This document shows positions 2,381-2,522 of a stretch of 7,473 nt of DNA, in pieces. The position numbers were made by a program, and so were the translations under genes. The notes under the pieces were generated by a model, which made no database searches, was not told the origin of the DNA, and worked only from the letters and a program-made list of their open reading frames with translations. This DNA comes from a virus (taxonomy: Monodnaviria > Loebvirae > Hofneiviricota > Faserviricetes > Tubulavirales > Inoviridae). The first letter of the stretch is position 1. Each line of letters begins with the position of its first letter. The DNA lies in IMG/VR virus record IMGVR_UViG_2671180847_000001, positions 1 through 7,473 of that record; one strand, 5' to 3'.

Positions 2381-2445
2381 AATACCTCCTCCTGACTTTT
2401 TGCCTCTCTTGTCCCAGATGTTGCATGCTGTTGTGCTCAAAATTT

Positions 2446-2506
2446 CGCCGCGAAGCGGTTCGGGGTTCTGTGACACCCGAACTTTACCGTGGTTTCCCAC
2501 GGTTTT
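2446..2506. other. Cluster of short GC-rich hairpins in the intergenic region between regulator and cargo genes
   Basis: Three stem-loops: CCGC-GAA-GCGG (2448-2458); GTTCGGG-11 nt-CCCGAAC (2458-2482); CCGTGG-TTTC-CCACGG (2487-2502) followed by TTTT on the plus strand. GC-rich island between the AT-rich cargo genes and the regulator gene. Confidence 0.35.
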
Positions 2507-2522
2507 GGTACTGCGTGGGGCT

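Follow-up and report, generated by a model that had tools for sequence, protein, structure and literature searches.

A conserved stem-loop cluster as the probable core of the plus-strand replication origin of an If1-like filamentous prophage

The gene II protein (pII) of the filamentous phage M13 nicks supercoiled DNA at CTTT/AAT within the loop of a first hairpin, the nick position being GTTCTTT^AATA, and its binding repeats lie in a second hairpin (PMC11765958). In M13, the plus-strand origin has the sequence GAGTCCAC-GTTCTTTAATA-GTGGACTC and, without a gap, TTGTTCCA-AAC-TGGAACAA; both corresponding features are annotated as 'viral-strand origin stem loop' in the record of phage IKe. In the pT181/pC221 family, a conserved nick hairpin is accompanied by a replicon-specific palindrome, whose recognition depends on a few residues in a C-terminal helical domain (PMC4797284). 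In phiLf-UK, a phage of Xanthomonas, the origin and an adjoining GC-rich packaging hairpin of 7-8 bp lie on one fragment of 120 nt that has four stem-loops; the packaging hairpin has an ACCG(C/T)G-type stem and essential T and C bases in its loop, and the phiLf origin includes a GCGNAGC mini-hairpin (bioRxiv 10.1101/2023.12.30.573655). Here, a cluster of three stem-loops was analyzed in a stretch of 7,473 nt (IMG/VR record IMGVR_UViG_2671180847_000001, hereafter the window) that contains a filamentous prophage. With a probability of roughly 80%, the cluster is the core of the plus-strand (double-strand) rolling-circle origin of this prophage, forming part of an If1-like pII/G2P module. The best-supported reading, drawn from sequence comparison, is that the core would combine a shared nick hairpin, a private initiator-binding palindrome and an optional stable mini-hairpin, as in Ff phages and the pT181 family.

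The three stem-loops were found at the place and with the sequence described in an initial annotation of the window, on a local GC peak (55-56% at 2400-2519 vs. 30-40% on both flanks; 0.43-0.49 at 2520-2680), and, as that annotation also stated, between the stop codon of a minus-strand regulator-like gene (2523) and the ATG of a minus-strand cargo gene (2380). On the plus strand, hairpin I (2448-2458, CCGC-GAA-GCGG) holds the motif GCGAAGC with a GNA triloop and shares its last G with hairpin II (2458-2482), the predicted nick-site stem-loop, in which the arms 2458-2464 and 2476-2482 (GTTCGGG/CCCGAAC) enclose the loop GTTCTGTGACA (2465-2475). A TTT spacer (2483-2485), replaced by TA(A) in the Vibrio clade, separates it from hairpin III (2486-2503), a 7-bp palindrome (ACCGTGG-TTTC-CCACGGT) followed by TTT, which is the predicted initiator-binding site. 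In ViennaRNA folds, which included the structure prediction for single-stranded DNA (ssDNA) proposed as a check, hairpins II and III were predicted for either strand, whether folded as DNA or as RNA, and hairpin I in the minus-strand folds and in the plus-strand RNA fold. Folding energies were only 2.3 to 2.5 standard units below those of shuffled sequences (z -2.3 to -2.5; both strands, DNA or RNA). As these z-scores are modest evidence by themselves, the case for the hairpins being real, and not folded by chance, rests on the comparison with relatives, which is decisive.

Pair counts were obtained from a gap-free alignment of 28 distinct relatives, a subset chosen because MAFFT, applied to all classes together, placed the 5' arm of hairpin II out of register. 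Standard pairs occupied 92.2% of pair cells, vs. 27-45% when partners were slid, and the covariation score (0.373, vs. 0.185 in shuffles) was reached by none of 500 shuffles. Hairpin II was paired in all 28 sequences (100%), and two of its pairs had changed in both partners; hairpin III was paired in 91.8% of cells, and in five of its seven pairs both partners had changed; hairpin I reached 75%, and the TTT spacer was invariant. The stems of hairpin II co-varied among GTTCGGG/CCCGAAC, GTCCGGG/CCCGGAC, GTCCGAG/CTCGGAC, GTGGGGG/CCCCCAC and GTTGGGG/CCCCAAC, and the loop consensus YC[T/A]GTNAC[A/T] was retained despite these stem changes. Hairpin I occurred in some clades only, being degenerate or missing in the Pasteurellaceae/oral clade. 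Relatives with altered hairpin I stems and a GNA loop included CCCC-GGA-GGGG (locus L152), CCC-GAA-GGG (L154) and CCGC-GGA-GCGG (L041); in L012 the hairpin reads CCGC-CTA-GCGG, whose loop is not GNA.

Comparison with the intergenic DNA of related phages, also suggested in the initial annotation, recovered the exact hairpin II pattern in 79 IMG/VR viral contigs of inovirus size and in 54 stretches of species-representative genomes, nearly all of them from Gammaproteobacteria, plus a few metagenome-assembled genomes labelled otherwise. Hosts included Enterobacterales, Pasteurellaceae, Vibrionaceae, Aeromonadaceae, Neptuniibacter and Cellvibrionaceae, marine Gammaproteobacteria among them. Since the exact pattern fixes hairpin II, further relatives were gathered through the initiator protein. 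At the nucleotide level, a segment of the 'major intergenic region' of If1 matched positions 2449-2506 of the window with 98% identity, and Alteromonas phage phiAFP1 matched them at the same identity over 46 nt. Inoviruses of human and lemur saliva, a record flanking a CTX prophage (36-nt match) and 439 plasmids gave weaker matches. Among 5,426 complete Escherichia coli genomes, the element was present in 689, at 429 plasmid and 361 chromosomal places. As an origin, the element would be of an ordinary kind; the related records that were inspected carry no label for it, and its conservation among the filamentous phages of Gammaproteobacteria is striking. No paper containing the hairpin sequence was retrieved in a full-text literature search.

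The record of If1 (L001, NC_001954) offered some additional observations. The 'major intergenic region' of If1 (L001 1283-2488; L149 6040-8432) contains the origin unit, an unannotated small minus-strand gene of the same cluster as the window regulator, and an apparent IS200/IS605-type insertion, ORF348 resembling TnpB on reading. For the If1 initiator, 'ORF320; homologous to R-pyocin' is the sole annotation, and its N-terminus appears to be shortened.

The gene context of the unit was analyzed in the whole set of copies. In 132 of 145 scored cases, the unit was located on the strand that has the greater coding length in open reading frames (ORFs), and a same-strand homologue of the window initiator was present in 121 of 148 copies, mostly 320-870 nt downstream. 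Copies lacking such a homologue were mostly cut loci, remnants, or loci with more Ff-like pII genes. The latter accounted for the apparent exceptions L012, L086, L070 and L115: L012-type initiators matched the G2P models with scores of 8.8e-70 and 2.1e-29, and the initiator fragment of L115 was 50% identical to residues 1-128 of M13 pII. The next plus-strand ORF belonged to a single family in 102 of 108 loci, while the minus-strand ORFs lying between the unit and the initiator fell into 17 unrelated clusters, their ends being located 20-40 nt past hairpin II in nearly all cases. Because the unit travels with one initiator family, the element belongs to the replication module, rather than to the regulator or the cargo; the small regulator-like gene is an exchangeable cassette outside the origin unit. 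As the flanking genes differ among relatives, the unit marks a fixed edge of an exchangeable region. In the Erwinia sp. OLFS4 locus (L115), a 3.5-kb tandem duplication was observed, with origins at 1760-1783 and 5316-5339 and no assembly genes between them; the first copy holds the origin unit together with genes for a regulator of XRE type and for a truncated initiator, and the second the origin followed by other downstream genes.

The initiator gene of the window (2856-3971, plus strand) encodes 371 aa starting with MFFDWL, which on sequence grounds is a protein of the pII/G2P family. It matched the Pfam models of the G2P C-terminal domain (G2P_X_C, 1.8e-25) and of the G2P N-terminal domain (1.3e-4), was assigned to PHROG 702, was 82% identical to If1 ORF320, and is named 'Replication-associated protein G2P' in public records. 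M13 pII in turn matched the profile of the initiator family with 39.6 bits.

In addition to linkage, hairpin III showed base-level covariation with the initiator. As a whole, it followed neither the initiator tree nor the regulator family: palindromes differed even among initiators that were 86-90% identical, and one palindrome was found together with three unrelated regulator families. A column-by-column test over the initiator was therefore carried out, in which near-identical sequences were collapsed and permutation was restricted to within clades, and residues 315 and 318 were identified. The top column of the entire protein was residue 315 (371-aa numbering; motif LNK-K-QVQTHRARLRKIGI), with a mutual information of 1.657 bits vs. 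0.644 ± 0.098 in permuted data, a value reached in none of 20,000 permutations; the next column had 1.02 bits. Lysine at this position was paired with ACCGT (12/12), arginine with xxxGC (26/27) and alanine with GGTAT (15/15), further pairings being asparagine with AGTAC and threonine with ACCCC, and the same pairings were repeated in three clades with identities of ~50%, 64% and 86-93%. Nucleotides 4-5 of the half-site tracked residue 315 (z 10-12), nucleotides 1-3 tracked residue 318 (z ~9-10; Q or E with ACC, K or R with GGT or AGT), and nucleotide 6 tracked residue 319 (z 6.6). Moreover, initiator-homology loci from outside the discovery alignment, with other hairpin II stems, agreed with the earlier residue pairing in nine of ten cases, the tenth fitting 'K with xxxGT'. 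In an AlphaFold2 model of a database homologue (pLDDT 88.2), residues 315-325 (nt 3798-3830 of the window) form one helix of the C-terminal domain, which would place residues 315, 318 and 319 on a common face. This pattern is characteristic of a recognition helix by which the hairpin III palindrome, the predicted binding site, is read; hairpin III would be an initiator-specific binding site, and hence a specificity determinant.

On this basis, a mechanism can be proposed. A dimer of the pII/G2P initiator would dock on the hairpin III palindrome of the supercoiled replicative form, the palindrome being read by one helix of the C-terminal domain (residues 315-319), and the catalytic domain would nick the plus strand in the loop of the adjoining extruded hairpin II. 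By analogy with Ff, the nick is predicted in GTTCTGT^GACA, between T2471 and G2472, ~23 nt from the palindrome centre. A host polymerase would then extend the 3' end and, one round on, hairpin II would be recut and resealed, releasing a plus-strand circle. In the clades that have it, hairpin I, a GNA mini-hairpin of very high stability, may be accessory to the origin. Initiator binding, the position of the nick and origin activity are all parts of this model that we infer from the comparisons described above.

Several observations weigh against this interpretation. The predicted nick position has the alignment with the Ff loop as its single basis, and the Pfam match of the initiator to the G2P N-terminal domain is marginal (22.2 bits vs. 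a cut-off of 21.7). In a copy from Vibrio cholerae O139 (L005, AF416590.1), the unit is followed by a P2 gpA-type initiator (PF05840, 1.3e-82) and not by a G2P protein. The invariance of hairpin II was partly imposed by the search pattern, independent variation coming from ~20 initiator-homology loci, and at ~9 initiator-homology loci with ample upstream sequence no recognisable upstream copy was found under the criteria used. Mismatches in hairpin III were balanced between G·T and A·C (29 vs. 22), which is compatible with action of the palindrome as duplex, cruciform or single strand and with folding of either strand or of neither. Finally, an A+T-rich enhancer (domain B) follows the Ff core, while the window has no counterpart and shows a coding region instead, the stop codon of the minus-strand gene being located 20 nt past hairpin III. 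Regarding the V. cholerae locus, hairpins I-II (loop TTCCTGTTACA) were located at 3001-3036, ~650 nt past the attRS end of a CTX prophage, with a ~40-nt direct repeat on the flanks of the copy, and an XRE regulator preceding the gpA-type initiator gene.

The initial annotation had proposed that the cluster houses replication origins and the packaging signal. This idea was right in kind, and the initiator linkage and covariation narrow it to the core of a plus-strand origin. A role of hairpin III, or of the whole cluster, as a ssDNA packaging (morphogenetic) signal read by assembly proteins, instead of or besides the origin, is unlikely overall, and constitutes the most serious secondary possibility for hairpin III. 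A similar GC hairpin situated directly beside the origin is the packaging signal of phiLf-UK (bioRxiv 10.1101/2023.12.30.573655), hairpin III of the window, with ACCGTGG and the loop TTTC, resembles its ACCG(C/T)G-type stem, and the orientation of the unit is fixed relative to the packaged strand. However, the half-sites of hairpin III co-vary with residues of the replication initiator, and no relation between the phiLf and the window initiators was detected by BLAST. Many stems of the family, such as GGTATCAA or AGTCCGGA, also lack the Xanthomonas consensus: GGX(A/-)CCG(C/T)G plus the essential loop bases T and C was matched only partially in the window (ACCGTG, TTTC) and was absent from most relatives, for instance GGTATCAA-AC-TTGATACT and AGTCCGGA-AT-TCCGGACT.

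It is improbable that the cluster is primarily a terminator or RNA structure, whether as the 3' end of the regulator mRNA, as a plus-strand shield against antisense transcription or as the leader of the cargo operon, the last two having been put forward in the initial annotation. The unit is always within ~20-40 nt of the stop codon of the minus-strand gene, a T-rich tract follows hairpin III in many relatives, and the A-run located 5' of hairpin II in the oral clade would be a T-run behind a hairpin on the minus strand. These T-rich tracts, however, overlap the lysine-rich C-termini of minus-strand genes, and a scan of positions 1600-3000 on both strands yielded no terminator-like site; likewise, no Rfam covariance model overlapped 2440-2522, even at E-values of up to 10. 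For a terminator, stem stability suffices and a conserved 11-nt loop is not needed, so the retention of the loop sequence, and not of stem stability only, leaves the terminator idea weak; the covariation with the initiator would also go unexplained. The genes upstream belong to unrelated families, and the element is kept in phages with unrelated cargo or none and with unrelated regulator genes, which makes an RNA leader of the cargo operon unlikely. Besides its probable origin role, the cluster may possibly moonlight as a terminator.

There is very little likelihood that the hairpins represent a minus-strand (complementary-strand) origin on the packaged strand that would be recognised either by the primase of the host, the arrangement of phage G4, or by RNA polymerase, that of Ff. 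The element is kept over many host genera, which would fit recognition by a conserved host enzyme; the number of hairpins, three, is that of the G4 oric; CTG is present in the loop of hairpin II and recurs 8 nt past the 3' end of hairpin III, there as part of TACTG, a pentamer that the G4 primer start also has; and hairpin I resembles the stable GCGAAAGC hairpin of G4 stem-loop I. Nevertheless, the loop CTG is changed to CAG in at least 10 initiator-homology relatives (L170, L179, L184, L193-L200) and the downstream CTG is not conserved, so the form of this explanation involving a primase start site is disfavoured. No likeness to the G4 oric or to the downstream region of R100 oriR was recognised by eye, without formal alignment, and no promoter-like hexamers were found on the element. 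A host-enzyme site would moreover leave unexplained the covariation with the initiator and the linkage to one initiator family. A secondary minus-origin role is possible for hairpin I. Lastly, hairpin III as an operator of the neighbouring regulator was excluded as a general explanation, because one palindrome occurs with three unrelated regulator families.

With respect to the rest of the window, positions 1-1589 correspond to E. coli hipB and hipA, and the filamentous (inovirus) prophage extends from ~1665 on. Downstream of the origin, the small regulator-like gene (2523-2756, minus strand; probable start at 2726, 67 aa) lies between the origin and the initiator gene; it matched PHROG 2503 (7e-28, function unknown) and gave no hit in a Pfam search. 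The initiator gene is followed on the plus strand by genes for a ssDNA-binding protein (3988-4278), the major coat protein (4526-4744), an adsorption protein (4807-6114), a pVI-like protein (6116-6412) and Zot/pI (6424-7473). On the other side of the origin, the minus strand carries the cargo ORF (1970-2380; 136 aa when the ATG at 2380 is taken as start) and, at 1767-1973, a small membrane ORF, neither of which had a match in Pfam, PHROG or PADLOC. The phage part (1665-7473) shared 99.3-99.5% identity with 'plasmid unnamed4' (L231, NZ_CP195780.1), a 7,439-bp circle of E. coli strain A37 from calf dung, which is the complete phage genome and includes the secretin gene past the end of the window. 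Since the phage exists there in a free circular form, a working origin must be present somewhere in it.

The window resembles other E. coli chromosomes only up to position 1679, which falls within a dif-like sequence. As ssDNA, positions 1664-1762 folded into a long hairpin (-35.9 kcal/mol, z -8.8), in which the dif-like site (GGTGCGCATAATGT...TTATGTT) pairs with an inverted copy (ACATAACG...TGCGCA), with a bulged centre and a GC-rich apical hairpin; this fold looks like a folded attachment site of the CTXphi type. Directly 3' of the major coat gene, within 4745-4806, a short GC hairpin followed by Ts (gagaggggctttgtgcccctt) was observed, which is probably the usual attenuator or terminator behind the coat gene of filamentous phages.

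The cargo of the window sits between the dif-type attachment hairpin and the origin. Its ORF could be extended up to 2500, giving 176 aa, in which case it would overlie the origin hairpins, and PGAP indeed annotates a long hypothetical ORF over them in the near-identical episome (L231 4884-5390, ~1970-2476 of the window and beyond). The shorter form is more plausible: a strong Shine-Dalgarno sequence (AGGAGGAGG) precedes the ATG at 2380 by 4 nt, and 2381-2500 overlies the conserved non-coding unit, in agreement with the earlier suggestion that the long N-terminal extension is probably not translated.

The 429 places found on E. coli plasmids mostly contained hairpins I-II beside AbiJ-like or Shedu genes and an insertion sequence of the ISNCY family. 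In ColV-type and IncHI plasmids, these defence-type genes, encoding an AbiJ-like protein (PF18863 and PF22809) and a Shedu nuclease (PF14082), were observed on the side of the origin remnant that matches the cargo side of the window (L002 2998-3939; L146 4110-4910). At four loci, three on plasmids and one in a Cedecea genome (L002 4063, L123 7053, L145 5062, L146 5077), the end of the ISNCY-family element (...TATAATATCATTGAAGTTATTT...) abuts the 3' side of the unit at a distance of 28-39 nt from hairpin II, and hairpin III was degraded or truncated in three of these four loci (L002, L123 and L146). The junctions differ, suggesting repeated insertion beside the element.

A more speculative extension, which we regard as a long shot, is that the origin works as a two-part address, consisting of the shared nick hairpin and the private palindrome with its helix code (residue 315 for base pairs 4-5, 318 for base pairs 1-3 and 319 for base pair 6), and that perhaps not all plasmid copies are dead. 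If so, a resident phage could supply an initiator that cuts the plasmid copies; these could act either as decoys or as nick or rolling-circle termination sites by which large conjugative plasmids are mobilised or destabilised. Concerning annotation, the analysis offers a concrete candidate origin for the large and widespread group of If1-like filamentous phages and prophages, for which the only label in If1 is 'major intergenic region'. The residue-to-base covariation predicts the few residues and base pairs that would set origin specificity; such a code would account for the coexistence of related phages in one cell with no cross-replication, and could provide designable orthogonal pairs of origin and initiator for phagemid and ssDNA production. 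This code and the breadth of conservation are the most interesting aspects, the element itself being previously unlabelled and of a well-known kind.

Compared with described systems, the gene order of the window (origin hairpins, divergent repressor gene, initiator gene) is that of CTXphi, whose ori(+) lies beside rstR, and both phages integrate at dif; the CTXphi origin, in contrast, spans 167 bp, is HU-dependent and is cut by RstA, which is not a G2P-family initiator. With phiLf and phiLf-UK, the window shares a compact cluster of stem-loops containing a GCGNAGC mini-hairpin, a nick hairpin and a GC-rich hairpin of 7-8 bp, whereas in those phages the cluster is inside the initiator gene, the order of hairpins differs, and the last hairpin is a proven packaging signal and not an initiator site. 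The resemblance to the plus origin (domain A) of Ff and IKe extends further: a stem-loop with an 11-nt loop is followed, after 0-3 nt, by a palindrome of 7-8 bp with a loop of 3-4 nt, in non-coding DNA, on the plus strand and upstream of the gene for an initiator of the same Pfam families (G2P N-terminal and C-terminal domains), and the loops GTTCTGTGACA of the window and GTTCTTTAATA of M13 are identical at 8 of 11 positions (9 of 11 for the oral clade). The differences are that the stem and palindrome sequences are unrelated, that a divergent regulator gene separates origin and initiator gene in the window, that a GNA mini-hairpin adjoins its nick hairpin, and that the initiator is ~23% identical to M13 pII in the closest subclade. 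The double-strand origins of pT181 and pC221, served by RepC and RepD, belong to a different setting, as the hosts here are Gram-negative and the replicon is a filamentous phage, and the window initiator is not a member of Rep_trans (PF02486) at the sequence level. They nonetheless share with the window the combination of a conserved nick hairpin (ICRII), a private palindrome (ICRIII) and specificity residues, predicted ones in the window, in a C-terminal helix. In the pT181 family, the palindrome centre lies about two helical turns (23 bp) from the nick; in the window, a nick at the position predicted by Ff analogy only (2471/2472) would lie 23 nt from the centre of hairpin III (2494/2495).

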